DNA from: a candidate division FCPU426 bacterium
Lineage (GTDB): Bacteria; Oederibacteriota; Muellerivitia; Muellerivitales; Muellerivitaceae
Assembly (NCBI GenBank): GCA_963771075.1
Contig: CAVYSE010000018.1
Coordinates: 64,001 to 128,000, forward strand
Direction: 5' to 3'
Length of the DNA: 64,000 bases
The position numbers and the translations under genes were made by a program. This document shows, one piece after another, positions 18,709 through 50,209 of the stretch; position 1 is the first letter of the stretch; each line of letters begins with the position of its first letter. Below the pieces are notes generated by a model, which worked only from the letters and a program-made list of their open reading frames with translations, searched no databases and was not told the DNA's origin.

Positions 18709-18983
18709 AACCGGAAGAGGTACTGGCGAAAGTAGCTAAAATCCATGGGGAAAAGTCGGGTGAGATATTGAAGGCTGGAAAAAGGGAGTCGGAAGCACGG
18801 GACGCGGCCATTTATTTGATGAAACGGAAATCGGGGATGAGTTCAATGGAAATTGGGGAAAAGATGGGCGTGGGTGCCAGCGCGGTGGGGAATCGGATAG
18901 CGATGGTAAAGAAGCGGATGGAGGGAGAGACACGGTTCAAGGCTCGGATAGATAATATAAAATGAAGACTTGACCCCATTGTT
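18549..18983 (+). mobile_element. 435-bp non-autonomous element, copy 1 (probable internally deleted HUH/RAYT-type element)
   Basis: Perfect 28-bp IR AACAATGGGGTCAAGTCTTCATTTTATA / TATAAAATGAAGACTTGACCCCATTGTT; apparently identical copies at 31540 and 32990. Confidence 0.88.
18675..18965 (+). CDS. Helix-turn-helix fragment resembling the DnaA-domain-IV-like C-terminus of RAYT/Y1 transposases
   Basis: EEVLAKVA...ARDAAIYLMKR...SMEIGEKMGVGASAV; stop lies in the right IR; same ORF at 31666 and 33116. Confidence 0.6.
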   Translation: MPKYQKQAIKLKPEEVLAKVAKIHGEKSGEILKAGKRESEARDAAIYLMKRKSGMSSMEIGEKMGVGASAVGNRIAMVKKRMEGETRFKARIDNIK

Positions 18984-18984
18984 C

Positions 18985-19541
18985 TTTATTTGGAGCTATG
19001 ACTTTGTGGCGGATCGAACGAGTGATACCCGGTCGTTGAGGTTTTTGACGGTGATAGACGAGTTCACGAGGGAGAACTTGGCTTTACCAGTACAGAGAAA
19101 GTTTACGGCAGATGACGTGCAGGCGACGCTGGCGGAGCTGTTCATCCAACGCGGAGTACCGGAATACATCCGCTCCGACAACGGCCCGGAGTTCACCGCG
19201 GAGAGGGTGAAGGATTGGCTGCCAAAGGTGGGAGTGAAGACCCTGTTCATTGAACCGGGAAGCCCTTGGGAGAACGGCTACAACGAGAGCTTCAACGGAA
19301 AATTCAGGGATGAACTGCTGAACGGCGAGTTGTTCGATACGGTGTGGGAAGCACGAGTGATCGCCGAAAGGTGGAGGAAGGAGTACAATACAAAACGGCC
19401 ACACAGTTCTTTGGGGTACCGGCCACCGGCCCCGGAGGCGGTCGCCATGGGGCCCAACAGCAACTTCAGGCCCATGTCGACCTCAACAAACTGAGTCTAT
19501 GGTGTGAGATTAGCGGTGGTACTAAAACCGGGGGCAGGTCA
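18985..19541 (+). mobile_element. IS3-family remnant (integrase core + right end only)
   Basis: WSYDF, IRSDNGPEF, PGSPWENGYNESFNGKFRDE, RPHSSLGY; terminus ...GGGGGCAGGTCA at 19541; 5' part replaced by the 435-bp element. Confidence 0.88.
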
Positions 19542-20864
19542 ACAGACCATTGGCTTGGTACATTCAAAGCTTGTTCCTCGACTTGATGTCTCGGAACAGA
19601 AGTATCAGGCCACCTTTTCAAAGAAGTCCGTGATGGATCGATGGGATAAGGGACTTCAAGCGTTGATCGGCTGACATTTGTTGGGCGAATTATTCCTCGC
19701 CAACCCCTTTGGAAAACTTTTTCCCTCCCGGATGCGTTTTTTTCTTGAAGGCCCGGCTTCCTCCGGTTTATTTTCACATCAATTGAAAGGGTACCCGATG
19801 ACTTGTGGTCATCGGGCTAGGGGAGAACCCAAGACAGCACTTGGCGGATAACTGTTAGCTTATCGCTAACGGCTACCAGCAAACCGCTAATGGCTATATT
19901 TGGAGGTTCCCCCATGGAATCAGCACAATCACCCGTTGGTCCTTCGGACCAGATGCCCTATCCCCTCAACCAAATCGTGATGGTTCCCATCGACGACCTG
20001 TGCGACCCGCCTTGGGACCCCCGGCCCGTCGTGGATGAGGGTCCCCTCCAGCTTCTCGTGGACTATATCGCTGGGGAAGGTTACACCCCTCCCATCCTGG
20101 CTTGGGTGGGGGATGGCCGAAAACCCTGGCCGGTGCTTTCCGGCAAACGCCGCCGATTGGCAAATCAACGGTTGGGGAAAACCGAAATCGCGACGATCTT
20201 CTTGGATTGCTCCGAAGAACGGGCAAAAGACCTGACTCAATCCACCAACGAGGACGATAAGCCCTATTGGCTGGGTTCTTGTATCCAAACCGAAACCAGG
20301 TTAGCGGAATTTGGTGAAAATTATGAGATCCTTGGAAAACGGATTGGAAAGACAAAATCCTGGGTTTCGAGAGCGATTTCGTTAACGAAATTACTTAGCA
20401 ATACTTCTCGGAAGATGATTTTCGACCAATATTTAAACGCAGTTGCGAATCGCAACTCAGTTCCAAAAAAAGAAGAAAATCAGGAAACGATCAGCGTAAA
20501 AAAGGGAAGAAAGGCGCAAAAAGAGGAAAATTTAGACGACAAACAATGGTTTTTGTTGGAATCGGTCGCTCTTGAATTATTGCCCCTTTTTAGGGGCCGG
20601 CCGGTGATAGAAGCCGTCCGGCTCGCCGATCAGGTGGTACCTGTCGTTCTTTCCCAAGAATTGGACGCGAAGGGCGTCGCCAAATTGGTTGGTATGTTGA
20701 ACAAGGGCCACGAGATATCCGACTTTATGGAACTCAACCTGAAGGGACCTGCGAAATCCCAATCCGGGGGCGCCACGGCAAAGGTTCATCATGCCGAGGG
20801 GGCTGATCCCGGTAATGGATCAGCACACCCAAAGAGTGACCCTCGGCTTGAGGCCTCGGGTCAG
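19542..20864 (+). repeat. 1.3-kb direct duplication, copy A (copy B at 30213-31535)
   Basis: Near-identical sequence at offset 10671 with only a few substitutions. Confidence 0.93.
19603..19674 (+). pseudogene. Orphan 3' end of the local GT4 paralog family (also at 30274-30345)
   Basis: TTTTCAAAGAAGTCCGTGATGGATCGATGGGATAA matches the 3' end of the GT ending at 30197. Confidence 0.8.
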
Positions 20865-23438
20865 GGGGCTGATCCTGGTAAGGGATCAGCACACCCAAAG
20901 AGTGACCCTCGGCTTGAGGCCTCGGGCCAGGGGGCTGATCCGCCAATTGAATCAGCACACCCAAAGAGTATGGCTCAGATTGAGGCTGAGCCACAGGGGG
21001 CTGGCCCTGAGGTGATTGTGGAGGAAGTCAAGAAGCCCACCTTAACCTTTTTTCAAAGGCTGAAATTATTCTGGCAGGGCATCCTCCAAGCATTTCGGAA
21101 CTTGCGGCAACCGCCTCCCGGGGAAACATCCCCCGCGAAATCGGACCCAACGAATCATGGTTCCGGTACAGGCGACCCTCCCAACGGGACCCAACCTGGA
21201 CCCACGGCCCAGGGGGCCGATTCTAGTATTGAATCGGCACTCCCCAAGAGTGGGCCGCAGCATGTGGCCGCGGCCCAGGGGGCCGATTCTAGTATTGAAT
21301 CGGCACTCCCCAAGAGTGGGCCGCAGCATGTGGCCGCGGCCCAGGGGGCCGATTCTAGTATTGAATCGGCACTCCCCAAGAGTGGGCCGCAGCATGTGGC
21401 CGCGGCCCAGGGGGCCGATTCTAGTATTGAATCGGCACTCCCCAAGAGTGGGCCGCAGCATGTGGCCACGGCCCAGGGGGCCGATTCTAGTATTGAATCG
21501 GCACTCCCCAAGAGTGGGCCGCAGCATGTGGCCACGGCCCAGGGGGTAAGACCAAGGGCTTCGCTAAAGGCTAATAGCCAACCGCCAAAGACTGTCTTTT
21601 CCGATTTTCTGGCTGACTTGGCCGAGGTCTTCCAAGGCTTTACCGCCGCCGGGGTGAAGGACTTTTTAGGCAAAATACCTGAGAACAAGTGGCAGGCCGT
21701 AGGTTATATCCTCGAAAAGGGCCTAAAAGGCGGGATCAAGTGCCTGGGGCATCTGCTTGTGGTGCTTGTGAAACATTTCTTTAAGCTGACGGGAAAGGGC
21801 ATCCACAACATCTCCAAATCCGTGGCCGCATGGGTCATGCCCATTCATTCCAGTAGCGGGTCCAGGTCCCACGGCACCCGAACCGGCCAGAATCCCCTCT
21901 TATATTTAGGCCACTGGGTGGTCTATGGGTTCATCACCTTGGCTTGCTATTCGATCGTGCTGGGGTCCATCGCGAACTTTATTCCGGTCATCGGACCCTG
22001 GATAAGGTCCGGGGAATGGACCTTCCTCCATCTTTTGCCCCAGGTGCCCCTTTGGCTGTTGGGTAAGATTTTACAACATCTTTGGATCTCCTTGGGTCTG
22101 TGGCTCATGCTTCTTTGGATGATCCACCGGGCCTTCAAGCCGGGTTTGGGGTGGCTCATCACTTTGTTTGTTCTTTTTCTCGCCGCCTGGCATTTCAAGG
22201 GTTGGGTGATGGATCAGTTACACCTTGATTTGCCGGCCTTCGAACCCAAGACGTCGGCCGCGGCCCAGGTCTCTGGCCCGAAGTCACAAACTGAGGGCGT
22301 CGGTTCTTCTTTAGAACCGACACACCCAAACCGTGGGCCTAATCTTGAAGATTCGGCCCAGGGGCATGATTTGAGAATACCCATTACCGAAAAAGGAATG
22401 GGTACCCCTCCACCTTTGTCGGCCCTTTCAGCCCCGCCGCCCACGGCGATTGTTTCCTCCCCACCCCCATCGGCGAAACCTAAACCTGCCGCAAAACTTA
22501 AGACCCCGCCTAAAAAGGTCTTAGTTGAAAGCCAAAGCGCAACACTTAAAACCGAGAACTCGGTCGCTCCCGTGGCTCTCCCCGGCGCACCCGCCACGGG
22601 GGAAGAGGCGGCGTGGGTGGCCGAGCTCATCCCCGCTTTTCACACGCCCTTCCTGGTGAAGCCTTTGGATCTTCAGCCTGACCCAACCATTTCCCCCGTC
22701 ATGGTCCAGAAAAGGCTTTCCGAAATCCAGGACCCCGAAAGGTTCCGCGTTTACGTGGGGCATGACCGCCAAACGATTAAATCCATGAACGTGGACGATG
22801 GCGGAATGGACCTATTCTTCAACGGCTCCTTCGGCGGGCTTTTGGGCGACTCATCCAGCTTTCGGTTCTTCTGGGAAGACGTGCAGGGCATCCGCCTGGC
22901 GACGGTGGAGGTTTCGGGCGACAAGCCGCAAACGCTTTGCTTTTGCGCGCTGGAAGTGAAGACCAAGAAAAAAATGGCGGCCTTCGAATGCGCGCCGGGG
23001 GACGTGGCCCATTTGGTGTCGGCCCTGGCGGCGCAGTTCAAAAGCTCCACGAAAAGGGAGGTATCGGTGGCGCCCCTGCCTTACCTGAACCAGGGTATGT
23101 GGCTGGGCGGGCAGAACCAGGTGGATGGGATGTGGAAGGAAAGCCCTGCGGGGCGGTCGCAAGAGGTGAAACTGCGCTTTACCCCGGCGGACTGGAAAAG
23201 GCCCACGACCGGCGGCGGAATCCGCCTGGGGGATTACCTTTGGAGCCTGGGCGTGAACCAGGATAACCAAACCGGGAAGGAAGAATTGCTCAGGCAGTTG
23301 GGCGGAACGGCCTCGGGACCGTCGACCCTTTTCGTGGTGGGCCCGGACGATTGGCGCAAGGCCCAGAATGCCGAGACCGGCCCCGAAAACGACCCCTTCA
23401 ACCCGCCCCGCAGGGCGGTGCGCCTGCCGGCGCCGTGA
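19914..23438 (+). CDS. ParB/Srx N-terminal domain + HTH + repeat linker + TM helices + C-terminal PDZ-like domain
   Basis: PWDPR, PPILAW, VLSGKRRRLA (ParB arginine patch), GKTKSWVSRAISL (HTH), hydrophobic block, SPAGR...GIRLGDYLWSL; GGAGG RBS before ATG 19914. Confidence 0.7.
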   Translation: MESAQSPVGPSDQMPYPLNQIVMVPIDDLCDPPWDPRPVVDEGPLQLLVDYIAGEGYTPPILAWVGDGRKPWPVLSGKRRRLANQRLGKTEIATIFLDCSEERAKDLTQSTNEDDKPYWLGSCIQTETRLAEFGENYEILGKRIGKTKSWVSRAISLTKLLSNTSRKMIFDQYLNAVANRNSVPKKEENQETISVKKGRKAQKEENLDDKQWFLLESVALELLPLFRGRPVIEAVRLADQVVPVVLSQELDAKGVAKLVGMLNKGHEISDFMELNLKGPAKSQSGGATAKVHHAEGADPGNGSAHPKSDPRLEASGQGADPGKGSAHPKSDPRLEASGQGADPPIESAHPKSMAQIEAEPQGAGPEVIVEEVKKPTLTFFQRLKLFWQGILQAFRNLRQPPPGETSPAKSDPTNHGSGTGDPPNGTQPGPTAQGADSSIESALPKSGPQHVAAAQGADSSIESALPKSGPQHVAAAQGADSSIESALPKSGPQHVAAAQGADSSIESALPKSGPQHVATAQGADSSIESALPKSGPQHVATAQGVRPRASLKANSQPPKTVFSDFLADLAEVFQGFTAAGVKDFLGKIPENKWQAVGYILEKGLKGGIKCLGHLLVVLVKHFFKLTGKGIHNISKSVAAWVMPIHSSSGSRSHGTRTGQNPLLYLGHWVVYGFITLACYSIVLGSIANFIPVIGPWIRSGEWTFLHLLPQVPLWLLGKILQHLWISLGLWLMLLWMIHRAFKPGLGWLITLFVLFLAAWHFKGWVMDQLHLDLPAFEPKTSAAAQVSGPKSQTEGVGSSLEPTHPNRGPNLEDSAQGHDLRIPITEKGMGTPPPLSALSAPPPTAIVSSPPPSAKPKPAAKLKTPPKKVLVESQSATLKTENSVAPVALPGAPATGEEAAWVAELIPAFHTPFLVKPLDLQPDPTISPVMVQKRLSEIQDPERFRVYVGHDRQTIKSMNVDDGGMDLFFNGSFGGLLGDSSSFRFFWEDVQGIRLATVEVSGDKPQTLCFCALEVKTKKKMAAFECAPGDVAHLVSALAAQFKSSTKREVSVAPLPYLNQGMWLGGQNQVDGMWKESPAGRSQEVKLRFTPADWKRPTTGGGIRLGDYLWSLGVNQDNQTGKEELLRQLGGTASGPSTLFVVGPDDWRKAQNAETGPENDPFNPPRRAVRLPAP
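20802..20995 (+). repeat. Three in-frame 66-bp double-hairpin modules (type 1)
   Basis: GCTGATCC-N7-GGATCAGC + linker + 27-nt hairpin; period 66. Confidence 0.9.
21216..21541 (+). repeat. Five in-frame 66-bp double-hairpin modules (type 2)
   Basis: GCCGATTC-N7-GAATCGGC + TGGGCCGC...GCGGCCCA; encodes GADSSIESALPKSGPQHVA(A/T)AQ. Confidence 0.93.
22299..22360 (+). repeat. Single diverged double-hairpin module
   Basis: GTCGGTTC-N7-GAACCGAC + ACACCCAAACCG + TGGGCCTAAT-CTTGAAG-ATTCGGCCCA. Confidence 0.8.
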
Positions 23439-23446
23439 GGATTTCC

Positions 23447-23493
23447 GGGGCCAGGCCTCCAATTTCCATTTTTGGGGCCCCGGCCCGGAGGGG
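23447..23493 (+). repeat. Dispersed GGGGYCAGGC..TTTCCRTTTTT..CCCGGC boundary repeat
   Basis: Similar copies at 26822/28153 (split by IS110), 38749 and 40155. Confidence 0.72.
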
Positions 23494-23604
23494 TGCTGTC
23501 AGGCAAGACGCATCGAAGCCCCCGTCGAAACCATCGGTATTGTCACAAGATGAGCGATTGGGTGTATAATCGGAAAGTAGGAATAAGTAGGAAAGTGAGA
23601 AAAT

Positions 23605-23865
23605 ATGGCATCCGTTCGAATCCGTGAAAAAGGCCAAATGACCCTGCCGAATTCCCTTCGGCGGGAAATGGGTTGGAGTTCCGAATATTTCGTCAATGCC
23701 GTCAAGGTGGGGGATTCGGTCCTGTTGATCCCCAAACCCGTCGTGGGGGACGCTCTCGCCCGCAAGGCGGCCCGGACCATGAAAACCCAGGGAATCACCC
23801 TCAGGGACCTATTGGGTGAACTGAAAAAAGCCAGGAAAGATTACTCCAAAAAAGATGCCCGCTAA
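23605..23865 (+). CDS. AbrB/MazE/SpoVT-family antitoxin
   Basis: VRIREKGQMTLPNSLR; overlaps the PIN gene; upstream AAGTAGGAA direct repeats after TATAAT. Confidence 0.85.
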   Translation: MASVRIREKGQMTLPNSLRREMGWSSEYFVNAVKVGDSVLLIPKPVVGDALARKAARTMKTQGITLRDLLGELKKARKDYSKKDAR

Positions 23866-24301
23866 CCGGTTTTTGAGGGTTTTCCTCGACGCCAGCGTTT
23901 GGGTGGCAGGGATCGTTTCCGAGAAGGGCGCCGCGCGGGAAATTCTCCGCTTGACGGAGGCGGGTCTTTTGGAAGTGACAGTATCAGAACAGGTGATCGT
24001 GGAGTTGGACCGTGTGATGAACGCGAAATTTCCGGAGCTTGTGCCGGAGGTACGTGGGTTTCTCAAGGCGGTCCGGCCCCGGGCGGTGGATGATCCGACG
24101 GAACAGGAAATCCGGGCCTTTCGGAGTGTCCTGGAGGCGGGGGATGCAAGCATCCTCGCGGCGGCGGAACGGGAAAAAGTGGATTACCTGGTGACCTGGG
24201 ACCGAAATGATTTTCTTAAGGGAAACGCGCAAAAACTATCTAAATGCCGGATCACCGACCCGGGTGATTTTTTAAGGGCTTTCCGGGAATACATAGGGTA
24301 A
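23855..24301 (+). CDS. PIN-domain toxin
   Basis: RVFLDASV, GDASILAAA, YLVTWDRNDF. Confidence 0.85.
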   Translation: MPANRFLRVFLDASVWVAGIVSEKGAAREILRLTEAGLLEVTVSEQVIVELDRVMNAKFPELVPEVRGFLKAVRPRAVDDPTEQEIRAFRSVLEAGDASILAAAEREKVDYLVTWDRNDFLKGNAQKLSKCRITDPGDFLRAFREYIG

Positions 24302-24433
24302 ATGACCAACCTGAAGGGATCAGATTTCAAGCGACGCGGGGGAGTATCTGAAAATAGGGAATTAGCCCAGGGCCCTTTTGGGTCACTCACTTAACACCCT
24401 TTTCACCGCCAAGAACGCCAAGAACACCTAAAT

Positions 24434-24528
24434 GGGAATCGATGGGCGGTGATAAAAATACGCGTGGAAAAAGACCGGCGATTGGAGAAGATGGTCCATA
24501 AGTGTCAAGTGTTGTCCTGACCCCATTT
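24434..24528 (+). mobile_element. Diverged right-end remnant related to the 435-bp element
   Basis: Encodes GNRWAVIKIRVEKDRRLEKMVHKCQVLS*, cf. GNRIAMVKKRMEGETRFKARIDNIK*; ends TGACCCCATT. Confidence 0.68.
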
Positions 24529-24542
24529 TCGCGCGGGATGGT

Positions 24543-25568
24543 GTGGCGATTAAAAGGGTTTGGCGGCCGTCTTTCCACCAGCACTCCATGATTGGCCGCG
24601 TCTTGAATGCTGTTTGGATGTTGAAGTATTGGTGGCTCAGACTGCTCTTTAACCCTCAAATCAAACCCGATGTCATCCTGATCGGGACCGACCCGCTTTT
24701 TTCAATTATTTTGGTTCCGTGGCTGAAATTGCTCCGCCCCAAGGCCAAGATCGTCCATTGGTGTTTTGACCTTTACCCGGAAGCCGCCATCGCGGATGGG
24801 GTGATTGGGGATGGGAATCCCCTGGTCAAGATCGTGAAATGGATGATGAAGGGGGGATATCAAAAATGCGATTTGGTCGCCGATTTGGGAAGCTGCATGA
24901 GGGAAAGGCTGAAAGATTACGGCATTCAAAAAAGCGTGACGCTTACGCCCTGGGCATTGGAGGAGCCCCCTGAACCCTTGGGCTTCGATAAAGATGAACG
25001 GGCGCTTTTATTCGGGGATGCCCCTTTGGGGATGCTTTATTCGGGAAGTTTCGGCCGTGCCCATGAATTCTACCTGATCCTTAAACTGGCACGAAAGCTT
25101 CATTCTAAAGTGATGATCAACTACGGGGTTCGTGGAAGCCGGCTGGAAGAGTTGAAACTGGCGATTAACCCGGAAGATACCAATGTTCGAATTTCAGGTT
25201 TCGCGCCACCCGATCGATTGGCCGCGCGCCTTTGCGCTCCCGATATCCATATCGTCTCCCTTCGCCCGGAATGGGAAGGCATCGTGGTGCCCTCAAAGTT
25301 TTTTGGGGCCCTGGCCGTGGGAAGGCCGGTGTTGTTTGAGGGGCCTGAAAAATCGGCCATTGCCCAATGGATCAAGGAACACCAAGTCGGCTGGGTTTTG
25401 AGGCCCGGCAACCTGGAAGAAGTGGCGGGCGACCTGGCGCGTTTTTCGGCCGACGAGGCCGGGAAGGCGGCGATGTTCAAGCATTGCAACGAGACCTATA
25501 AGAAGTTCTTCTCCAAGAAGGCGGTTATGGACCACTGGGATAAAGAACTTCAAGCGCTGACCGGCTGA
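24543..25568 (+). pseudogene. 5'-truncated GT4 (WbuB/WcaI-like)
   Basis: Paralog of 28985-30197 lacking the N-terminal LNHYYWPDDVA region; VVPSKFFGALAVGRPV. Confidence 0.8.
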
Positions 25569-25635
25569 CAATGGTCGCGCGGATGATTCTACTCAAACTA
25601 TTTTGGAAACCTTTTTTCGAGGCTTGAAAGGTCTG

Positions 25636-25670
25636 TTGACCGATTTAATATTAGATATTAAAATTGCATC
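25636..25670 (+). promoter_or_regulatory. sigma70-type promoter with palindromic operator, probably leaderless
   Basis: TTGACC-17-TAAAAT, ATG 7 nt downstream, no SD; TTTAATAT-TAG-ATATTAAA at 25644-25662. Confidence 0.6.
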
Positions 25671-26822
25671 ATGTATCTCCATCGGTTACTGGAAAAGACA
25701 CTGTCCCAGGTCCAAAAAGCATTCCCCGCCGTTGTCCTGACTGGCCCCCGGCAGTCGGGGAAGAGCACTCTTTTACGCCATTTCCTGGCGGCCCGGAAAC
25801 CCACGATCCTTTCGCTGGAGGACCCGCGGACCCGTTCACTCATCGCGGAAGACCCCTTGACCTACCTCCGACGGCTTCCCAAACCGGCGGTATTGGATGA
25901 GATCCAGTATTACCCGGACATCACGGTTTACGTGAAAATGATCGTGGATGCCGACCGGAAACCCGGCCAATGGTTCTTGACGGGCTCCCAGCAGTTCACC
26001 CTGATGCGCCACGTATCCGAGTCGATGGCCGGCCGGGCCGCCATCTTGACCCTTCCCCCGATCCAAATGGGGGAACGGAAAAAGACACCCAACTTGGAGG
26101 GCTTTATGGCGGGTCCCAGCTACCCGCAACCCCTGCTTGCCCCCAAAAAACATGCCGCCCTTTGGTATTCTTCCTACCTCCAGACTTACCTGGAGCGGGA
26201 CATCCGAACCCAGCTCGCCGTCTCGGATTTGCGGGATTTCGAGAAATTGATCAGGCTTCTCGCGGCCCGGACGGCCCAGGTGCTCGATTACACATCCCTG
26301 GCGGGGCCCTTGGGCTTGAGCGTGCCCACCGTTAAAAGATGGGTTTCGGCGCTCTCGGCCGGTTACATCATCCACTTGCTCCAGCCCTATTACGAGAATT
26401 TCGGAAAACGCATCATCAAGGCCCCCAAGATTTACTTTTACGATCCCGGTTTGCCGGCTTATTTGCTCCGGCTGGACCAGGGCCCCCCTGTCCAGCATGG
26501 GCCCATGGCGGGAGCCCTATTCGAAAACGCGGTGGTCTCCGAAATGCTGAAGGCCGGATGGGCGAAAGGGACACAGCCGGAGTTCTATTATTGGCACTCC
26601 CAAGGCGGGATGGAGGTGGACCTGCTCGTTCCCGGCCAGGGCGGATACGACCCGGTCGAAATCAAGCTGGCGTCCCGGTTGAAGGCGGACCATGCCCGTA
26701 ACCTGAAATACTGGCTGGAACTTTCCGGGCGAAAAAATGCGGTGGGGACTCTGGTCACCGATTCCAAAGAGGAATTTCCGGGCGCCAAAATCCGGAACAT
26801 GCATTGGGAAAATCTGTTATAG
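25671..26822 (+). CDS. AAA_14 ATPase with DUF4143 / C-terminal nuclease-like domain
   Basis: GPRQSGKST, VLDEIQ, LTGSQ, APKIYFYDPG, EVDL...VEIK. Confidence 0.9.
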   Translation: MYLHRLLEKTLSQVQKAFPAVVLTGPRQSGKSTLLRHFLAARKPTILSLEDPRTRSLIAEDPLTYLRRLPKPAVLDEIQYYPDITVYVKMIVDADRKPGQWFLTGSQQFTLMRHVSESMAGRAAILTLPPIQMGERKKTPNLEGFMAGPSYPQPLLAPKKHAALWYSSYLQTYLERDIRTQLAVSDLRDFEKLIRLLAARTAQVLDYTSLAGPLGLSVPTVKRWVSALSAGYIIHLLQPYYENFGKRIIKAPKIYFYDPGLPAYLLRLDQGPPVQHGPMAGALFENAVVSEMLKAGWAKGTQPEFYYWHSQGGMEVDLLVPGQGGYDPVEIKLASRLKADHARNLKYWLELSGRKNAVGTLVTDSKEEFPGAKIRNMHWENLL

Positions 26823-26840
26823 GGGTCACCTATGAAAAAG

Positions 26841-26994
26841 AATGTCCAGGCAAAAGCGTAGTATCACGGCCCCAAGTCCAACCTGAGTCTCAAAGGACTA
26901 CAAGTCAGTCACCTATTCGCGGTTGTTTCACCGCACGATAACGTTGGACCCGGCCGCTCAATCAGGCCAAGGACCTCAACTCTTGCGGGTTGTG
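26841..26994 (-). ncRNA. Predicted bridge/seek RNA of the IS110 element
   Basis: Non-coding end downstream of the recombinase, with segments matching both sides of the circle junction and the target, the donor pair enclosed by a stem. Confidence 0.65.
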
Positions 26995-28017
26995 TCAGAC
27001 CCCGTCGGAGCTGGCCGGGCAGTCCTCAAAAGCTTCCTTCTTTCGTAACATATGAAAGATGCTTTTCAGCATAGCCCTTGCTACTGCTATTCGTCCCGCG
27101 TTATTCCCATGCTTCTTCTTCACCCTCGTGTATAAGGTCCCATACCGTCGGGTTTTGCGAATGGCATGAAGCGAGTTCTCAACCAATATCCAGCGAATCC
27201 ATTTAGAACCCTGTTTGGTGATGTGGCCGTTGTGGCTTTTTCCCCCTGATGCGTGAACACTGGGGACCAATCCACCATAAGAACATAGATGTTCCGCGTC
27301 CGGGAACCGGCGAATATCCCCAATCTCGCTCAAAATTAATAAAGCCGAAAAGGCACCCACGCCTGGCATGGTCATCATCAGCTGGGCTTCCGGGCTTTCT
27401 GCTGCCATTTTCTTGATCACCTCTTCTGATTTGGCGATCTCTTGGCCTAGTTCCCGGATTACTTCCATATATCCGTCCAGTTCCAAACGGTAGCAAGGCC
27501 GGGTACCTACCGTGGCAAGTTCGCGGAAGTTCTTTATTCCGAATCGGTTTTTAGTAACGGGTTCGATTCCCGCCTTGGTCATGACCGAAGTCATCCGGTT
27601 TTTGGCTTGTGTTCTCAATTGCACCAGGGAAGCCCGGTACCTAAGGATTTCCCGTAAGTCGCGGATCTCTCGGGGTGGCACATAGGCTCGTGGCAGCAGA
27701 TCCACCCGCAAAAGTTGAGCCAGGATTCCCGAATCAATTTTATCCGTCTTGATCTTGGCCGAGGCTATGGCTTTGACCTTTTGGGGGTGGGCCAATACCA
27801 GGTTGGGGAATCGATCCTCGATGAGTTCGTAAAAGTGATACCAATGACCTGTGGCTTCTACTACGACCTGGCTACTCACGGGTTGCTTCTTGAAATAAGC
27901 CTTTAAAGTATCCGCGTCGTTCTTCAGATCGACTTGTTCCAGCACCTTTCCTTTCTCATTCACTCTCGTGACGTAGGATGTTTTCTGGTGTAGGTCTACT
28001 CCGATATACTGTCCCAC
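26995..28017 (-). CDS. IS110-family DEDD recombinase
   Basis: IGVDLH, VVEATG, KTDKID, GLVPSVHASGG, ITKQG. Confidence 0.95.
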   Translation of the reverse strand: MGQYIGVDLHQKTSYVTRVNEKGKVLEQVDLKNDADTLKAYFKKQPVSSQVVVEATGHWYHFYELIEDRFPNLVLAHPQKVKAIASAKIKTDKIDSGILAQLLRVDLLPRAYVPPREIRDLREILRYRASLVQLRTQAKNRMTSVMTKAGIEPVTKNRFGIKNFRELATVGTRPCYRLELDGYMEVIRELGQEIAKSEEVIKKMAAESPEAQLMMTMPGVGAFSALLILSEIGDIRRFPDAEHLCSYGGLVPSVHASGGKSHNGHITKQGSKWIRWILVENSLHAIRKTRRYGTLYTRVKKKHGNNAGRIAVARAMLKSIFHMLRKKEAFEDCPASSDGV

Positions 28018-28396
28018 GGCTGCACCTCCTAAGCGTTTTGCACCACCTGCAAAGGTGAGTGCCTTTTCGACTCTGGGTTTATCCTAGAGCCTCGTCCCAC
28101 TTAAGTGGAGACGCTCTACGCTTGGAGCTCTGCAGCCTTTTTCATGTTATCAGGCTACCATTTTCCATTTTTCAAACCCGGCTCCGGCTGGGCCATGGGG
28201 AGCCCGAACCCAGGCAGAGGCTTCTATTGATTGTCGCTTGATGGGACCAAGTCCCCGACGCTCTTTGACGGGAGAACTCAAAACTTAATCTCCCTGTTAC
28301 CTAATCTAAAAGCCGAAAACATCCGGTCATGCAGGCGGGCATCATGTTGGATTGTGAATAGGGCTATAATACGGGAAACACCGAAGGAGGCGTCCC

Positions 28397-28627
28397 TTGA
28401 CCTGGCAAGATCGAATCATTATTAATCCTGAAGTCATGGTAGGAAAACCCATTGTTAAGGGTACCCGGATTACGGTTGAGTTCATTTTCGGCTTATTGGC
28501 CCAAGGGTGGAAAACCGATGAAATCCTCAAGAATTATCCTGGCATTGAACGTGAGGATATCCAGGCTTGCCTGATTTACGCGAGTGATGTTTTGCGCGCC
28601 GAAAAAGTTTATCCCCTTCCCGTATAA
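28397..28627 (+). CDS. DUF433-family antitoxin
   Basis: RIIINPEVMVGKPIVKGTRITVE...YPGIEREDIQAC; AAGGAGG RBS. Confidence 0.9.
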   Translation: MTWQDRIIINPEVMVGKPIVKGTRITVEFIFGLLAQGWKTDEILKNYPGIEREDIQACLIYASDVLRAEKVYPLPV

Positions 28628-28629
28628 AT

Positions 28630-28818
28630 ATGCGTTTTTTAGCTGATGAGAATTTTCCCGGTTCTGTTGTCGAAACCCTGAGGTTTGAAGGGCATGATGT
28701 TTTTTGGGCCAGGGTGGATTCCCCGGGGACAAAGGACAGGAGCCTCCTTTCCCGCGCGGAGGATGAGGGCCGGATCCTTTGGCCTGATGATGTCGCGCCT
28801 GATTCTTGTATGGAATAG
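28630..28818 (+). pseudogene. DUF5615 PIN-like toxin, truncated and joined to a GT 5' fragment
   Basis: MRFLADENFP...EGRIL, then switches to WPDDVA. Confidence 0.82.
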
Positions 28819-28860
28819 GCACGCCCAATCTTGCGCCTCGGCTTGAAGACCTCGGCGCGG
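28797..28860 (+). repeat. Double-hairpin module outside the ParB-like ORF
   Basis: GCCTGATTC-TTGTATG-GAATAGGC ACGCCCAATC TTGCGCCTCGG-CTTGAAG-ACCTCGGCGCG. Confidence 0.72.
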
Positions 28861-28984
28861 GTCCATCATCGTGAGTTTTCAAACAGTTGGTGCGAATGAT
28901 TAAAAAAGTTCTTGTGCTAAATCATTACGGATTCGACTCCCTATGGTCGCTCACCGCAGGCTATTTCTTTGAGGTGGATTAAGA

Positions 28985-30197
28985 ATGAATAAGATCCTCA
29001 TTCTTAACCATTACTACTGGCCTGATGATGTCGCTTCTGCCCGTCATTACACCGACTTTTGCGAGGATTTCGGCGAAGAGGGGTTATTCGGTCGAGGTTT
29101 GGCCTTGCAACCGGAGCTGTCACCACTATGAGGAAAAGTACCCTTGTGGGCGGGAGATCAAAAACGGGGTCCTCATCCGCCGGGTTTGGAGGCCGCCGTT
29201 CAAGCAGCATTCCAACCTGGGCCGGATGATCGACGCCCTCTGGGTGATGGCGGTTTGGAAACTGCGGTTTTTTACCCTCTTCGGGTCCCGGCCCGACCTG
29301 TTGGTCATCGGGACCGACCCCATCTTCAGCCTTTTACTCGTTCCCCTTTTTAGGCTGTTGCACCCGAAAGTGAAGGTGGTCCATTGGTGCTTCGACCTCT
29401 ACCCCGAATACCCGGTGGCCGCGGGGATGGTGCGGGAAAACCACTGGGCGGTGCGGGCACTGGGGGCCCTGATGGAGAAGGCCTACGGCGCCTGCGACCT
29501 GGTGGCCGACCTGGGGCCCTGCATGAGGCGGCAGCTTGAAAAATATCCCGCGAAATCCCGGGCCACCCTGCCCCCCTGGGCACTGGAAGAACCCCCTTCG
29601 CCTTTGTCTTTCGACCCGGCGGAACGGAAGGAACTTTTCGGTGACTCGCGGCTGGGCCTGCTCTATTCGGGAAATTTCGGTCTGCCCCATGCCTTTGAGC
29701 TGAGTTTGGCTCTGGCCCGCCGGTTGAAAAGCCAATCCACTACATTGACCTACAGCGCCCATGGGAGCCGGATAGAAGAACTCAAGGGGGCTTTGACGCC
29801 CAAGGACACGAATATCCGTTTTGTTTCCTTTGTCCCGCCGGATCGTTTGGCTGCCCGTCTGAGCGCCCCGGATGTCCATGTGGTCAGCCTGCGCCCCGAG
29901 TGGGCGGGGCTGGTGGTGCCATCCAAATTTTTTGGGGTTTTGGCGGTGGGCCGCCCGGTATTATTCGAGGGGGATGGGGGTTCTTCCATCGCCCAATGGA
30001 TCAAGGAGCACCAAGTCGGTTGGATCCTGCGGCCGGACAACCTGGAGGAAGTGGCGGGGGACTTGGTGAGATTTTCGGTGGATGACGCCAGGAAAGCGGC
30101 GATGTTCAAGCATTGCAACTCCGTTTACCAAGCCTATTTTTCAAAGAAGTCCGTGATGGATCGATGGGATAAAGAATTGAAAAATATAATCGGGTGA
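28985..30197 (+). pseudogene. GT4 (WbuB/WcaI-like) with +1 frameshift near 29070
   Basis: MNKILILNHYYWPDDVASARHYTDFCED in one frame, AKRGYSVEVWPCNR onward in the next. Confidence 0.8.
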
Positions 30198-30212
30198 TTG
30201 GGACCCTCCATC

Positions 30213-31535
30213 ACAGACCATTGGCTTGGTACATTCAAAGCTTGTTCCTCGACTTGATGTCTCGGAACAGAAGTATCAGGCCACCTTTTCAAAGAAGTCC
30301 GTGATGGATCGATGGGATAAGGGACTTCAAGCGTTGATCGGCTGACATTTGTTGGGCGAATTATTCCTCGCCAACCCCTTTGGAAAACTTTTTCCCTCCC
30401 GGATGCGTTTTTTTCTTGAAGGCCCGGCTTCCTCCGGTTTATTTTCACATCAATTGAAAGGGTACCCGATGACTTGTGGTCATCGGGCTAGGGGAGAACC
30501 CAAGACAGCACTTGGCGGATAACTGTTAGCTTTTCGCTAACGGCTACCAGCAAACCGCTAATGGCTATATTTGGAGGTTCCCCCATGGAATCAGCACAAT
30601 CACCCGTTGGTCCTTCGGACCAAATGCCCTATCCCCTCAACCAAATCGTGATGGTTCCCATCGACGACCTGTGCGACCCGCCTTGGGACCCCCGGCCCGT
30701 CGTGGATGAGGGTCCCCTCCAGCTTCTCGTGGACTATATCGCTGGGGAAGGTTACACCCCTCCCATCCTGGCTTGGGTGGGGAATGGCCGAAAACCCTGG
30801 CCGGTGCTTTCCGGCAAACGCCGCCGATTGGCAAATCAGCGGTTGGGGAAAACCGAAATCGCGACGATCTTCTTGGATTGCTCCGAAGAACGGGCAAAAG
30901 ACCTCACTCAATCCACCAACGAGGACGATAAGCCCTACTGGCTGGGTTCTTGTATCCAAACCGAAACCAGGTTAGCGGAATTTGGTGAAAACTATGAGAT
31001 CCTTGGAAAACGGATTGGAAAGACAAAATTCTGGGTTTCGAGAGCGATTTCGTTAACGAAATTACTTAGCAATACTTCTCGGAAGATGATTTTCGACCAA
31101 TATTTAAACGCAGTTGCGAATCGCAACTCAGTTCCAAAAAAAGAAGAAAATCAGGAAACGATCAGCGTAAAAAAGGGAAGAAAGGCGCAAAAAGAGGAAA
31201 ATTTAGACGACAAACAATGGTTTTTGTTGGAATCGGTCGCTCTTGAATTATTGCCCCTTTTTAGGGGCCGGCCGGTGATAGAAGCCGTCCGGCTCGCCGA
31301 TCAGGTGGTACCTGTCGTTCTTTCCCAAGAATTGGACGCGAAGGGCGTCGCCAAATTGGTTGGTATGTTGAACAAGGGCCACGAGATATCCGACTTTATG
31401 GAACTCAACCTGAAGGGACCTGCGAAATCCCAATCCGGGGGCGCCACGGCAAAGGTTCATCATGCCGAGGGGGCTGATCCCGGTAATGGATCAGCACACC
31501 CAAAGAGTGACCCTCGGCTTGAGGCCTCGGGTCAG
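30213..31535 (+). repeat. 1.3-kb direct duplication, copy B
   Basis: Matches 19542-20864; ends a few bases before the 435-bp element. Confidence 0.93.
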
Positions 31536-31568
31536 CAGCAACAATGGGGTCAAGTCTTCATTTTATAG
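30585..31568 (+). pseudogene. Truncated duplicate of the ParB-like gene (ParB + HTH only)
   Basis: Near-identical to the 19914 ORF up to ...LEASGQ, then QQQWGQVFIL* from the element IR. Confidence 0.85.
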
Positions 31569-31974
31569 TAACTATTCCAACCGCTTCTTCCTGCGCTAAT
31601 GTTGTAAAATGGGCCATCGCGTATCCATTGTTCACGAGGTGGGCTAAAAGCACAAACACCTGGATGTGCCCAAATACCAGAAACAGGCAATTAAATTGAA
31701 ACCGGAAGAGGTACTGGCGAAAGTAGCTAAAATCCATGGGGAAAAGTCGGGTGAGATATTGAAGGCTGGAAAAAGGGAGTCGGAAGCACGGGACGCGGCC
31801 ATTTATTTGATGAAACGGAAATCGGGGATGAGTTCAATGGAAATTGGGGAAAAGATGGGCGTGGGTGCCAGCGCGGTGGGGAATCGGATAGCGATGGTAA
31901 AGAAGCGGATGGAGGGAGAGACACGGTTCAAGGCTCGGATAGATAATATAAAATGAAGACTTGACCCCATTGTT
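31540..31974 (+). mobile_element. 435-bp element, copy 2
   Basis: Same 28-bp IRs and internal sequence. Confidence 0.9.
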
Positions 31975-32396
31975 CCCAGATTACCGTCACCGGTGCCATG
32001 TCCCCTTACGCCCTCACGATCGATGGCACCAACCAGCTGAGCGGTTGGGCCGGAACGGCCACTTATACTGGAAACCAGGGGTTCGTGGACGGCTGCCGCG
32101 GGATCTTCGTGGAGAGCTACACGGCCGGCACGGTGGTGGTTGGGACGACGCCCAGTGGCAACAATAACCAAACCTGGATCAATACCAACGGGGCAAGCTT
32201 CAGCCAAGTGGGCGGCGGTGGCGGCAGCACCAACGTTTGCACCACCCAGACCGCGGATATCCTGGCCTTCTGGGACGAAACGGGATCGGGTGGTACGATC
32301 CAGGCCGGCGACCCCTATGTTCTTTATTCGAGCCAATCCTCCAGCACAACGCCGAACCTCACCATCACGCTGACGGATTCCCAAACCTGGCCCTGA
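31975..32396 (+). pseudogene. 3' fragment of a Gly/Thr-rich secreted or surface protein
   Basis: Reading frame begins abruptly at the element end; extracellular-type composition; followed by a terminator. Confidence 0.55.
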
Positions 32397-32431
32397 TTTG
32401 ACGGAGGCATTGTAGTCATCTTCCGATGACC

Positions 32432-32466
32432 AAAGCCCGGATGAGAAATCATTCGGGCTTTTTTTA
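32432..32466 (+). terminator. Rho-independent terminator
   Basis: AAAGCCCGGATGA-GAAA-TCATTCGGGCTTT followed by a T run. Confidence 0.8.
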
Positions 32467-32598
32467 TTCTCCCGGGTCCCCTACCTCGAATTTGATCCAG
32501 GTCTCACGCTGCGGTGTGTGAGTTTCGCAAATCGAGCAAGGACTTGGGCCCCTAGGGAGCCTTCGCGGCGGGGATGGCCAGCCGGTTTGGGGCCTCTC

Positions 32599-32850
32599 TT
32601 AGGCCGGCTTCCGCGCTCTGCGTCCATAGGCTACGAACGCGGCCAGGAGGGCCGGCACCACACTCCAGAGCATGCCTGGAAACCCGGCGTACTGGGTGAA
32701 AAGCGCGCAGCCCAACAGCGAGTTGAGGGCCAGGCAGGCGGCCGGGAGAAAACCGCTCATCCAGGCCCCTCGGATCTCTTCATAATGGGAGAACGTGTAG
32801 GCCCCCCCGATCAGGTTCCACAAGGCCAGTAAGATTTGAAGCACCCATAA
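32599..32850 (-). pseudogene. DoxX-like membrane protein remnant
   Basis: LWVLQILLALWNLIGG...LLAAFVAYGR; no clear in-frame start or RBS. Confidence 0.45.
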
Positions 32851-32919
32851 ATGGGGGTGTTTGAATTAGGTATACTTTTACGGAATTAGGGTTTCACGCC
32901 AATCTTAGGAGGCTTATAG

Positions 32920-32985
32920 ATGAGGAAGTTCATTTATGTTTCCGCGTTGATCCTGGCGGCCGGTTTTACCCGTCTTTGGCCGGTG
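32920..32985 (+). pseudogene. 5' stub of a gene cut by element copy 3
   Basis: AGGAGG RBS, MRKFIYVSALILAAGFTRLWPV, then QQQWGQVFIL*. Confidence 0.6.
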
Positions 32986-32989
32986 CAGC

Positions 32990-33424
32990 AACAATGGGGT
33001 CAAGTCTTCATTTTATAGTAACTATTCCAACCGCTTCTTCCTGCGCTAATGTTGTAAAATGGGCCATCGCGTATCCATTGTTCACGAGGTGGGCTAAAAG
33101 CACAAACACCTGGATGTGCCCAAATACCAGAAACAGGCAATTAAATTGAAACCGGAAGAGGTACTGGCGAAAGTAGCTAAAATCCATGGGGAAAAGTCGG
33201 GTGAGATATTGAAGGCTGGAAAAAGGGAGTCGGAAGCACGGGACGCGGCCATTTATTTGATGAAACGGAAATCGGGGATGAGTTCAATGGAAATTGGGGA
33301 AAAGATGGGCGTGGGTGCCAGCGCGGTGGGGAATCGGATAGCGATGGTAAAGAAGCGGATGGAGGGAGAGACACGGTTCAAGGCTCGGATAGATAATATA
33401 AAATGAAGACTTGACCCCATTGTT
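32990..33424 (+). mobile_element. 435-bp element, copy 3
   Basis: Same 28-bp IRs and internal sequence. Confidence 0.9.
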
Positions 33425-33428
33425 CTTG

Positions 33429-33699
33429 GGAAGAGGTACTGGCGAAAGTAGCTAAAATCCATGGGGAAAAGTCGGGTGAGATATTGAAGGCTGGAAAAAG
33501 GGAGTCGGAAGCACGGGACGCGGCCATTTATTTGATGAAACGGAAATCGGGGATGAGTTCAATGGAAATTGGGGAAAAGATGGGCGTGGGTGCCAGCGCG
33601 GTGGGGAATCGGATAGCGATGGTAAAGAAGCGGATGGAGGGAGAGACACGGTTCAAGGCTCGGATAGATAATATAAAATGAAGACTTGACCCCATTGTT
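33429..33699 (+). mobile_element. Partial tandem copy (right 271 bp) of the element
   Basis: Repeats 33154-33424 at offset 275, including the right IR. Confidence 0.9.
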
Positions 33700-33816
33700 C
33701 TTGCTCTATTTGAAAAACCGAAGGCATCCAATCAGCCAGGCGGGTGTCATGCCGGCGTGTTTCTTTTGGAGAGGTGAAGGTTATAATGCCGTAAAATTTA
33801 TTGGGGAAATTGAGCT

Positions 33817-34128
33817 ATGGGTCTTAACCCGAAAATAAAAATTAAGCATAGGAAAATCGAGGATTTCTGCAAGCGGTATCGTATCCGCAAATTGTCTTTC
33901 TTCGGGTCTGCCATCAAGGAAAGTTTCCGACCGGATAGTGATATTGACATTCTCGTTGAGTTTGAGGCGGGCCAAAGCGCCGGGTTTTTGGGTCTTGCCC
34001 ATATGGAAGGTGAATTGTCCCGGATTATGGGGGGGAGACGGATTGATCTAAGGACGCCTGGGGAATTGAGCCGGTATTTTCGGAACGAAGTTGTTGCCTC
34101 GGCCCTGGTTGAATATGCAAAACCCTGA
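33817..34128 (+). CDS. Minimal nucleotidyltransferase antitoxin (MntA-like)
   Basis: FFGSAIKESFRPDSDIDILVEF (GSx10DxD). Confidence 0.9.
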   Translation: MGLNPKIKIKHRKIEDFCKRYRIRKLSFFGSAIKESFRPDSDIDILVEFEAGQSAGFLGLAHMEGELSRIMGGRRIDLRTPGELSRYFRNEVVASALVEYAKP

Positions 34129-34549
34129 TTTCATCCGCGTTCGGCATATGCTGGATGCCTGTTGCGAAGCACTTGAGTTCGTGAATGGCAAGTCCCGGTC
34201 GGATTTAGATAACGACCGGATGCTGGTTCTTTCTTTGGTTAAAGAAGTGGAAATCATCGGCGAAGCGGCTTCCAAAGTCTCCCCTGAAACTAAATCAAAT
34301 CATCCTGAAATACCGTGGCAGGACATGGCGCTTATGCGTAACCGCTTGATCCATGCTTATTTTAACATTGATTTAGATGTGGTCTGGGAAACGATACAGA
34401 AGGATTTACCTGAGTTGAAAAGGAAGCATCAGGATGTTCGGAATTTTGATAGTCCATCCGCCCACGAACCCCCCGCTGTTTATTTGACGAACCGCAAGCC
34501 CCAAAAGACGAAAAAGTCCAAACCCAAACTTAAATTGAAAAAAGATTGA
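34115..34549 (+). CDS. HepT/DUF86 HEPN RNase toxin with C-terminal extension
   Basis: EIIGEAA, MRNRLIHAY (RX4HXY), VWETIQKDLP. Confidence 0.9.
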   Translation: MQNPDFIRVRHMLDACCEALEFVNGKSRSDLDNDRMLVLSLVKEVEIIGEAASKVSPETKSNHPEIPWQDMALMRNRLIHAYFNIDLDVVWETIQKDLPELKRKHQDVRNFDSPSAHEPPAVYLTNRKPQKTKKSKPKLKLKKD

Positions 34550-34555
34550 TTAAGT

Positions 34556-35010
34556 ATGAATAAAGTTCTTGTGCTTAATTATTATTATTGGCCTGATGAC
34601 GTGGCACCTATTCTTATTTGGAATAGGCGCCCCCGAACTTGCGCCCCGACTGGAAGGTCGGGGCGCGGGACCATCATCGGGTTGAAATGATCGGGTGTCC
34701 TTAAAGATGAATAGTGTTCTTGTGCTCAATCACTACTATTGGCCTGATGATGTGGCACCTATTCTTATTTGGAATAGGCGCCCCCAAACTTGCGCCCCGA
34801 CTGGAAGGCCGGGGCGCGGGACCATCATCGGGTTGAAATGATCGGGTGTCCTTAAAGATGAATAGTGTTCTTGTGCTCAATCACTACTATTGGCCCGATG
34901 ATGTGGCCGGGAAGGCGGCGATGTTCAGGCACTGCCACGAGGTTTACATGAAATATTTCTCGAAAAATTCCGTGATGGACTGGTGGGAAAAGGGATTTAA
35001 AAAACTTTGA
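34556..35010 (+). repeat. 151-bp tandem repeat (GT start + double-hairpin module) x2, followed by a 50-codon GT N/C-terminal fusion
   Basis: ATG at 34556, 34707 and 34858, each encoding MNxVLVLNxYYWPDDVA; the third continues GKAAMFRHC...WEKGFKKL*. Confidence 0.9.
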
Positions 35011-49100: not shown

Positions 49101-50209
49101 GCCCCACAAGCACCAATACGATCACCCTGTCCCCGACTGGGACCTTGACACCCACTATTTCTGATACACCAACTACCACCAACACCATTACGAATAGCCC
49201 AACGATCACGGATACCCCGACCAATACGAATACGATCACCAGCACCCCGACCTATACGGACACGGTGACTAATACTCCGACCATTACCGACAGCCCCACA
49301 AGCACCAATACGATCACCCTGTCCCCGACTGGGACCCTGACACCCACGATTTCCGATACGCCTACCCAAACCAACACCATTACCAATAGCCCGATAATCA
49401 CGGATACACCGACCCCTTCCTTCTCCCCGACCGGTACTTCCTCGCAAACGCCGGTTTTCACGGACACGATTACCCTGACCCCGAGCTATACCTGGACTAA
49501 TACCCCCATCAATACCGTTACCTATACCGTTACGGCAACGGAAACCCCCACTTCCAGCCTAACCACCACACCTTCCAGTACCGAAACCCCAACGCCTAGC
49601 CTCACCAGCACGCCTACCCCCACTCCCCCCAACACCCCCACAGATAGCCTCACCCCCACGATGACATTCACCGGGACATTCACGCCCACAAGCACCCCGA
49701 CGGCCTCTTTGACCTCCACTGCCACGCCATCCGAAACCGGAACCCTCACCTTGTCTCCCACCGAGACTTGGACCCCTTCGGATACCCTCACGCCAACCGA
49801 ATCGCCCACGGTCACTATCACCGCAACCTTTACCCCCTCCCCCACATTGACCCTCACCCCCACGATCACCCAATCTCCCACCGTGACCCTTTCCCCCACC
49901 CCGACGCCGACCTTGGGCACCGGTTCCTACCTTTATTTGAGCGCGAACCGTTTCAATGTGTTATCCGACCCGCCCCTGCGCGTGGATTGCGGGACCTTGA
50001 ACGGCGGCGACCTCCAATTGCGGGTTTACAACGCGGTCGGAGCCACCATCCGGCATCTTTATTCGGGAAACCAGCCATCCGGGGGCTTCAGCCTTTATTG
50101 GGACGGCCTGGACGATAACGGGCAGGCGGCCTCGACCGGTTTGTACCTCGTCGCCCTGATCGAAACCTCGCAGACTCAGATCAAAAAAGTCGTGGTGGTG
50201 AAACAGTGA
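43120..50209 (+). CDS. Giant secreted protein: signal peptide, NHL repeats, WNPN beta-propeller repeats, Thr/Pro/Ser stalk, C-terminal FlgD-Ig/T9SS-CTD-like domain; +1 frameshift near 43415
   Basis: ADxGNNRVLIYN repeats in both ORFs 43120 and 43391; LRVYNAVG...YWDGLDDNGQAASTGLY...KKVVVVK. Confidence 0.82.
47530..49915 (+). repeat. Thr-rich coding tandem repeats (about 192-bp higher-order unit)
   Basis: TNTITNSPTITDTP units; antisense ORFs recur every 192 bp from 48484 to 49252. Confidence 0.9.

Follow-up and report, generated by a model that had tools for sequence, protein, structure and literature searches.

Several described repeat systems resemble the double-hairpin module reported here, which is carried by a 64,000-nt stretch of DNA (the window) from a candidate division FCPU426 bacterium. 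The REP, BIME and REPIN repeats, which are associated with TnpA-REP (RAYT) enzymes of group 2, share with it dispersed short palindromes, tandem arrays, a conserved stem mismatch and one favoured strand, as outlined in the sections cited (PMC8266576, PMC3479197). The ends of IS200/IS605 elements likewise have two imperfect hairpins and a short DNA-DNA pairing near an end, going by the relevant part of PMC8266576. The NTS/SRM motifs of the Ssn nuclease appear in the corresponding sections of PMC11893778 as strand-specific single-stranded DNA (ssDNA) hairpin repeats clustered in variable regions, while Rickettsia RPEs (PMC10969869) are palindromes lying, like the module, in frame in unrelated genes; to the module, too, no enzyme was linked. 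Mitochondrial double-hairpin elements, likened to the module from a partial description, also have two adjacent hairpins and are mobile with no coded enzyme, but are organellar. Integron attC sites, like the module, conserve a bottom-strand fold with little sequence, share a core with the target and have toxin-antitoxin (TA)-type neighbours, and non-autonomous IS200/IS605 derivatives resemble it in the same respects as the IS200/IS605 ends.

The best reading is that the module acts like the REP, Ssn-motif and RPE repeats and is, by the tests run, a member of none of them. The first-pass annotation had suggested a REP/BIME-like or Rickettsia RPE-like mobile palindrome; the likeness in behaviour stands, but membership of REP/BIME does not, with no GTAG-type conserved tetranucleotide 5' of the hairpin in the column profiles on either side and no RAYT gene flanked by modules (see below). 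The module also differs from REPs in its two unlike hairpins with a bulged distal helix, its sequence-free arms and its frequent position in frame in genes. Judged by eye, it is unlike the degenerate SRM pattern as given in the cited part of PMC11893778, and the Ssn-like genes of the module-bearing family have different arms of their own and no module. Compared by description with RPEs, as these are portrayed in part of PMC10969869, it is 66 nt rather than about 150 nt in length, its peptide is not conserved, both strands are read and its conservation is structural. It differs from IS200/IS605 elements in that the local IS200 ends are unrelated to it, no TnpB was found, there is no fixed target tetranucleotide and some insertions carry 7–14-nt duplications, and from attC sites in having no IntI, no R-box, another architecture and lone in-frame and nested copies.

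Three further classes were considered and rejected, namely a MITE (the module ends are not inverted repeats of each other, and target duplication is absent or variable), a parS/NBS-type site (the module has no fixed palindromic sequence) and a known structured RNA (there was no Rfam match in the window at the gathering score, and none in 20700–22500 at E ≤ 1). No published description of the module was found in the literature searched, mostly open-access texts.

Module copies in the window

All 13 module copies claimed in the first-pass annotation, and all of the stem variants claimed for them, were found in the window sequence. As claimed, nine lie in a forward-strand ORF (19890–23438) encoding a 1182-aa ParB/Noc-fold protein with a C-terminal domain common to its paralogs, and one lies in a truncated duplicate of this gene (30561–31568, forward strand). 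The nine, all on the forward strand, comprise three tandem 66-nt modules in frame (20802–20999, starting at 20802, 20868 and 20934), five near-identical tandem modules at 66-nt spacing in which pairs replace the TC/TC mismatch described below (21216–21545), and a single in-frame module (22299–22364). A copy of its own 3' arm lies directly before the array of five, the members of which, being near-identical tandem duplicates, are not independent evidence. An inverted-repeat mini-element starts at the end of the module in the truncated duplicate (31473–31535, forward strand).

The three remaining copies, described earlier as outside the ORF, are not plainly intergenic, as each adjoins a fragment of the 5' end of a GT4 glycosyltransferase (..WPDDVA). 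These forward-strand copies are a decayed module (28797–28864) after the 5' fragment at 28779–28796, a module after the 5' fragment in the first of two 151-bp tandem units (34606–34671) and a module in the second unit (34757–34822). The source of the fragments is a GT4 glycosyltransferase gene (28985–30197, forward strand), the second glycosyltransferase gene, which is frameshifted near its 5' end (28985–29060). Between 34556 and 35010 the 5' end of the glycosyltransferase recurs in pieces, together with a mini-gene in which an internal deletion fuses the N- and C-terminal ends; in two genera, S1/P1 nuclease genes show the same combination of gene fragment and module.

When the window was scanned with the covariance model unfiltered, these 13 copies were recovered and others came to light. 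A forward-strand module with a cut first hairpin lies 5' of the ParB-like gene and is joined to a glycosyltransferase 3' fragment (19543–19603), and its duplicate, with the first hairpin also cut, lies at 30214–30274 (forward strand). Another was located beyond the range 20802–34820, at 48–106 on the reverse strand, and a weak match (22272–22324, E = 4e-4) corresponds to what by its sequence appears to be a reverse-strand second-hairpin half (22272–22300) head to head with the 22299 copy. A 1.3-kb duplication (19542–20864 and 30213–31535) starts within one module and stops at the 3' end of another. The 22299 copy is matched exactly by contigs of other sequencing runs, and the 28797 copy apart from a single 1-nt gap; neither is therefore an assembly artefact. 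No joint skipping a module was seen in the contigs of four runs, which gave patchy cover of 21560–30200.

It should also be noted that the window carries other repeats. A separate palindromic repeat (24433–24530) and an IS110 copy (26822–28154), the latter with several near-identical copies in the genome, both have flanks that vary in other runs. Four copies of a mini-element with inverted-repeat ends of the GGGGTCA...TGACCCC type (18544–18987, 31535–31978, 32985–33428 and 33429–33703) encode only a DnaA-C-like HTH tail. Some 17 Y1 genes of the RAYT-like type, the longest encoding 326 aa, occur in the genome; one that was inspected has ends resembling those of the mini-elements. The region 48001–50000 is of extreme composition (GC skew −0.48, AT skew +0.31).

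Fold and covariation

The element is 66–72 nt long, with ends precise to about 1 nt. Hairpin 1 has 8–11 bp and a variable loop. It is followed by a helix of 3 bp, a bulge of 6 nt, a stem of 6 bp, a 2×2 mismatch, a second stem of 3 bp and, at the tip, a 5-nt loop carrying an invariant G. The mismatch is TC/TC on the top strand, which corresponds to tandem GA/GA on the bottom strand. Mutual information on 58 non-redundant copies recovered hairpin 2 and an extra helix, in which model columns 32–34 pair with 68–70 across the 6-nt bulge. This third helix and the TC/TC mismatch are new beyond the first-pass annotation. No covariation was found for a loop-to-bulge pairing of TTG with CAA.

A covariance model was built from 23 in-register copies. 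In their alignment 91.7% of cells pair and 18 of the 20 pairs change on both sides, a result that none of 500 shuffles reached. As the structure had been derived from the same sequences, covariation was retested on other sets. In 177 unique copies collected with a sequence-only profile omitting columns 32 and 70, the distal pair was Watson-Crick in 143, with all four pair types present (shuffle mean 55, maximum 80 in 2000 shuffles). A pattern leaving the tested columns free selected 60 unique copies from metagenomes, of which 48, 55, 45 and 54 kept the four tested pairs, against shuffle means of 15–21; these statistics ignore kinship, and some of the contigs may share source organisms with the relatives. 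The constraint on structure first proposed is thus upheld by covariation in three data sets.

The loop G was present in all 177 copies, and the TC/TC mismatch in 157 of them and in 220 of 236 copies from other genomes, figures that are somewhat inflated since these columns were in the search profile. The mismatch was converted to pairs in few copies (TC/GA in three, GA/TC in three). When five window sequences were folded as DNA, none of 200 shuffles on either strand did as well as four of them (z −2.9 to −6.7), whereas the 28797 copy was equalled by 12 and 57 of 200 shuffles on the two strands.

The non-canonical stem cells were skewed on the top strand, with 200 A·C and 29 G·T in the 236 copies from other genomes (110 and 27 when the most skewed pair was left out). 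A separate count for hairpin 1 gave 22 and 4. As A·C on top is G·T below, the skew points to the bottom strand as the folded one, and both selection on the folded bottom strand and deamination of an exposed bottom strand would give it. On the bottom strand the mismatch has a pyrimidine-GA-purine context, which favours sheared GA pairs. Wobble pairs make up about 7% of stem cells.

Distribution in the genome and the family

The repeat is genome- and family-wide, and far larger than first noted. Iterated nhmmer searches of the 4.39-Mb genome gave 99 matches at E < 0.01, against none in the reversed genome (117 against four at E < 1). The covariance model gave 110 matches in the genome, with 150 of 1523 candidates scored, which confirmed that copies exist genome-wide, the point for which the first-pass annotation had called for such a model and scan. 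Covariance-model matches were found in all 31 genomes of the family and were absent from 68 genomes belonging to the phylum's other families, and in an earlier run the count per family genome ranged from 1 to 104. Using a strict pattern against one genome per GTDB species, 16 loci were detected in eight assemblies, all confirmed by the covariance model and all uncultured MAGs, with one record being labelled Candidatus Firestonebacteria. The module pattern had no matches in viral contigs. A divergent subfamily with a longer distal helix was seen directly after the loop TTG of ordinary modules at loci L111, L114, L118 and L119 and at C8:49776 and C1:36459 of genome G000.

Insertion alleles, nesting and targets

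Comparison of alleles among relatives bears out the claim that the module is mobile and inserts in frame into proteins. A PMT-like gene is empty in three relatives (G001, G004 and G014); the allele of this genome is longer by 22 codons, that of G002 holds three modules and that of G003 has an N-gap. A GNAT gene shows a 22-codon difference between G014 and this genome, and two in-frame insertions, one of them holding a nested 72-nt element, distinguish the G024 glycosyltransferase from the copies in the window. The modules in genes are read from both strands with a variable encoded peptide, and they also sit inside folded enzymes and within the ParB domain, so that the building of protein linkers, as first suggested, holds as in-frame insertion but is a by-product.

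At some sites the junctions were free of duplication; at others a GC(A/T)GGNG-like core was duplicated over 7–14 nt. One chemistry does not explain both types. In the comparison of L115 with L116 a 7-bp duplication is identical to the last seven bases of the module. Copies are also nested: in a list of 28 5' halves without a 3' arm of their own, of which about 10 would be expected by chance in this genome, nine have that arm displaced downstream, with at least nine of 11 pairs kept. The junctions of nested copies lie at the loop, typically just before or after its TTG. In addition, 20 of 148 copies, many in tandem arrays, have their own 3' arm repeated upstream (about two expected).

Two host sites recurred. 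At tRNA-Thr genes, the covariance-model match ends within tRNA nt 1–8 at seven of 26 loci and a module lies close upstream at ten; at four loci with no adjoining module, the first seven bases of the tRNA are repeated just before hairpin 1, as judged by eye. At two umuC starts the host's own codons, (V)ALV/ALI, serve as the 3' arm; they are mirrored in the 5' arm and the distal 3 nt even where the consensus is lost. Of the 17 listed umuC starts, 15 have no module there. A general rule by which a guide picks the target was rejected, as the GNAT and glycosyltransferase insertions bring their own last codons or 3' end.

Candidate partner enzymes

No partner enzyme could be linked to the module among the RAYT/IS200, integron integrase, TnpB, Ssn-like GIY-YIG, DUF559, GxxExxY and group II intron candidates checked. 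The association with a RAYT raised in the first-pass annotation was not borne out, as no tnpA-REP gene was flanked by modules in 36 Y1 loci; six covariance-model matches fell in five of these loci, and no two of them formed a flanking pair. Y1 transposases were not found in nine of the 31 family genomes, including G021, which is 99% complete and has 64 modules, and Y1 and module counts correlate weakly (rho 0.49). The IS200 TnpA ends in this genome are unrelated to the module.

None of the 31 genomes exceeded the TIGR02249 cut-off for integron integrase, a search whose control was also without a positive, nor the cut-off for TnpB, for which the control was positive in eight of 14. The IS91 Y2 transposase had no match in this genome, with the control matching nowhere. 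Module matches were absent from the 30 Ssn-like GIY-YIG loci, where other arms are present, and from the 30 GxxExxY loci; four were found in two of 30 DUF559 loci, outside the cassette arms. The Ssn-like GIY-YIG and DUF559 genes (L199–L258) lie in small cassettes with inverted hairpin arms of their own. The genome has 11 reverse transcriptase (RT) matches, of which ten identical copies are group II introns (copies in C2, C3, C4, C5, C6, C9 and C21 of G000); as partners these were rejected, since all nine copies with the 5' flank shown follow a different short palindrome.

Origin and spread of the module

It is likely that the module is a non-autonomous mobile ssDNA element, the folded bottom strand of which would be recognised by a trans-acting enzyme; for this enzyme, analogy points to a probable HUH or small-ssDNA-nuclease type. 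Strand-specific recognition of mismatched ssDNA hairpins has precedent in the cited sections of PMC8266576, PMC3479197 and PMC11893778. We infer that the ssDNA folds in vivo, that folds are selected among copies, that nicking occurs in trans and that landing is assisted by homology at some sites. In such a scheme, the bottom strand would fold and a predicted nicking and strand-transfer enzyme would recognise its shape. Those copies that keep the fold would be the ones copied, which would give rise to compensatory changes, possibly helped by arm-to-arm conversion, and insertions in multiples of three would survive in genes, with the ParB-like genes possibly serving as tolerant sinks.

Several observations stand against this reading. 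No partner enzyme was found, the two junction types do not follow from one chemistry, and deamination of an exposed strand could have produced the A·C skew. Modules outside ParB-like genes show no leading/lagging-strand bias (15:15), a bias that would be expected from ssDNA transposition of the IS200/IS605 type. They are co-oriented with flanking genes (16:4 and 39:17, both by crude ORF calls), which fits an RNA step too, and no excised circle was seen. In a more specific but doubtful form of this reading, a new kind of ssDNA recombinase would act on the module by its shape (tandem GA, bulged helix and one loop base) and not by its sequence; the element could then land where its 5' arm and its distal 3 nt, serving as a guide, pair with a genomic core that matches them, tRNA-Thr and umuC being examples. 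If true, the module would be a 66-nt element retargetable by base pairing.

Alternatively, the folded form could be an antisense, bottom-strand RNA, either reverse-transcribed back into the genome or acting as a structured RNA. The G·U-type skew and tandem GA would suit RNA as well as DNA, and the co-orientation with genes, the short duplications at some sites and the RT matches could be read in the same way. However, the identical RT copies are group II introns homing to a different palindrome, no Rfam match was found, and the favoured strand is the template strand, which is absent from mRNA. The wobble pairs are also few for a structured RNA, as these usually show more. An RNA form is therefore considered unlikely.

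The modules could also bound TA or other cargo as an ssDNA signal selected by the host or an island (for priming, for uptake or, like attC, for cassette recombination), with lone in-frame copies left as by-products. This would agree with the arrays of co-oriented modules that have TA, ArdC, RadC and ATPase genes between them, with the duplicated pieces of host genes next to modules (glycosyltransferase, S1/P1 nuclease and Fic) and with the swapping of a 7-nt core with the target, as in cassette integration. Such a signal is nonetheless quite unlikely given the integrase result above and the lack of an attC-type AAC/GTT box in the profile, with many copies lying in genes, in both orientations or in cargo-free tandem and with copy number varying so widely among genomes.

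It is improbable that the fold is under no selection, with template switching perfecting the palindromes and tandem duplication and gene conversion spreading them. Template switching can mimic compensatory change, according to the relevant parts of PMC8794818 and PMC8604942. The few copies with a paired mismatch, the exact mirroring of host codons by the 5' arm at the umuC starts and the 3' arms repeated upstream all fit it. Yet it would erase the TC/TC mismatch, which is kept in most copies, and it poorly explains the pairing across the 6-nt bulge, the strand skew and the clean single insertions in unrelated genes. As the sole cause, template switching is largely refuted; as a contributor, it is probable.

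ParB-like genes as hosts

The ParB-like family was the only recurrent neighbour among 615 ORFs near modules (64 ORFs in 56 loci), with 25 HMM-positive ORFs or pieces in the genome. The N-terminal 280 aa of the window protein were modelled with a mean pLDDT of 84; the predicted fold matches those of ParB, Noc and KorB and contains no transposase-type domain. The C-terminal domain (22590–23435) had no Pfam match and is 87–96% identical in several paralogs with very different N-terminal halves. One query found no ParB-like relative in viral contigs.

That the ParB-like protein binds the modules, as also suggested in the first-pass annotation, or loads at them or mobilises them, is very improbable: 47 of the 110 copies do lie within ParB-like genes, which cover 35 kb, in both orientations, several such genes have a module 53–350 bp upstream and the two counts correlate across 25 genomes (rho 0.80, partly circular), but the arms have no fixed sequence, taking all four pair types, and are too variable for a binding site, while eight of 24 family genomes have modules but no paralog beyond one match of ordinary-ParB level (e.g., G013 with 32 modules) and only 10 of 67 pattern-selected metagenome copies are inside such genes. 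These last two counts, together with the other repeat types that ParB-like genes also carry, lead us to read these genes as strong, tolerant sinks that would be neither required nor the engine.

Significance of the module family

The module is a real, family-wide, structure-conserved mobile repeat. Of the original interpretation, structural constraint, genome-wide copies and mobility have held, REP/BIME membership and ParB binding sites have been set aside, and protein linkers are left as a by-product. What the family offers is a strongly covarying fold with invariant positions, a strand predicted to be the active one, ends that have been mapped, alleles with and without the module, and targets that recur. 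With fold, strand, ends, alleles and targets defined, the design of substrates for pull-downs and cleavage assays is direct. The finding bears on the spread of REPs, RPEs and similar short palindromes, and on how these supply proteins with new peptide. For the organisms themselves, the module marks a single uncultured family of bacteria, and the new protein sequence that it contributes can be measured, at 22 codons per in-frame insertion.
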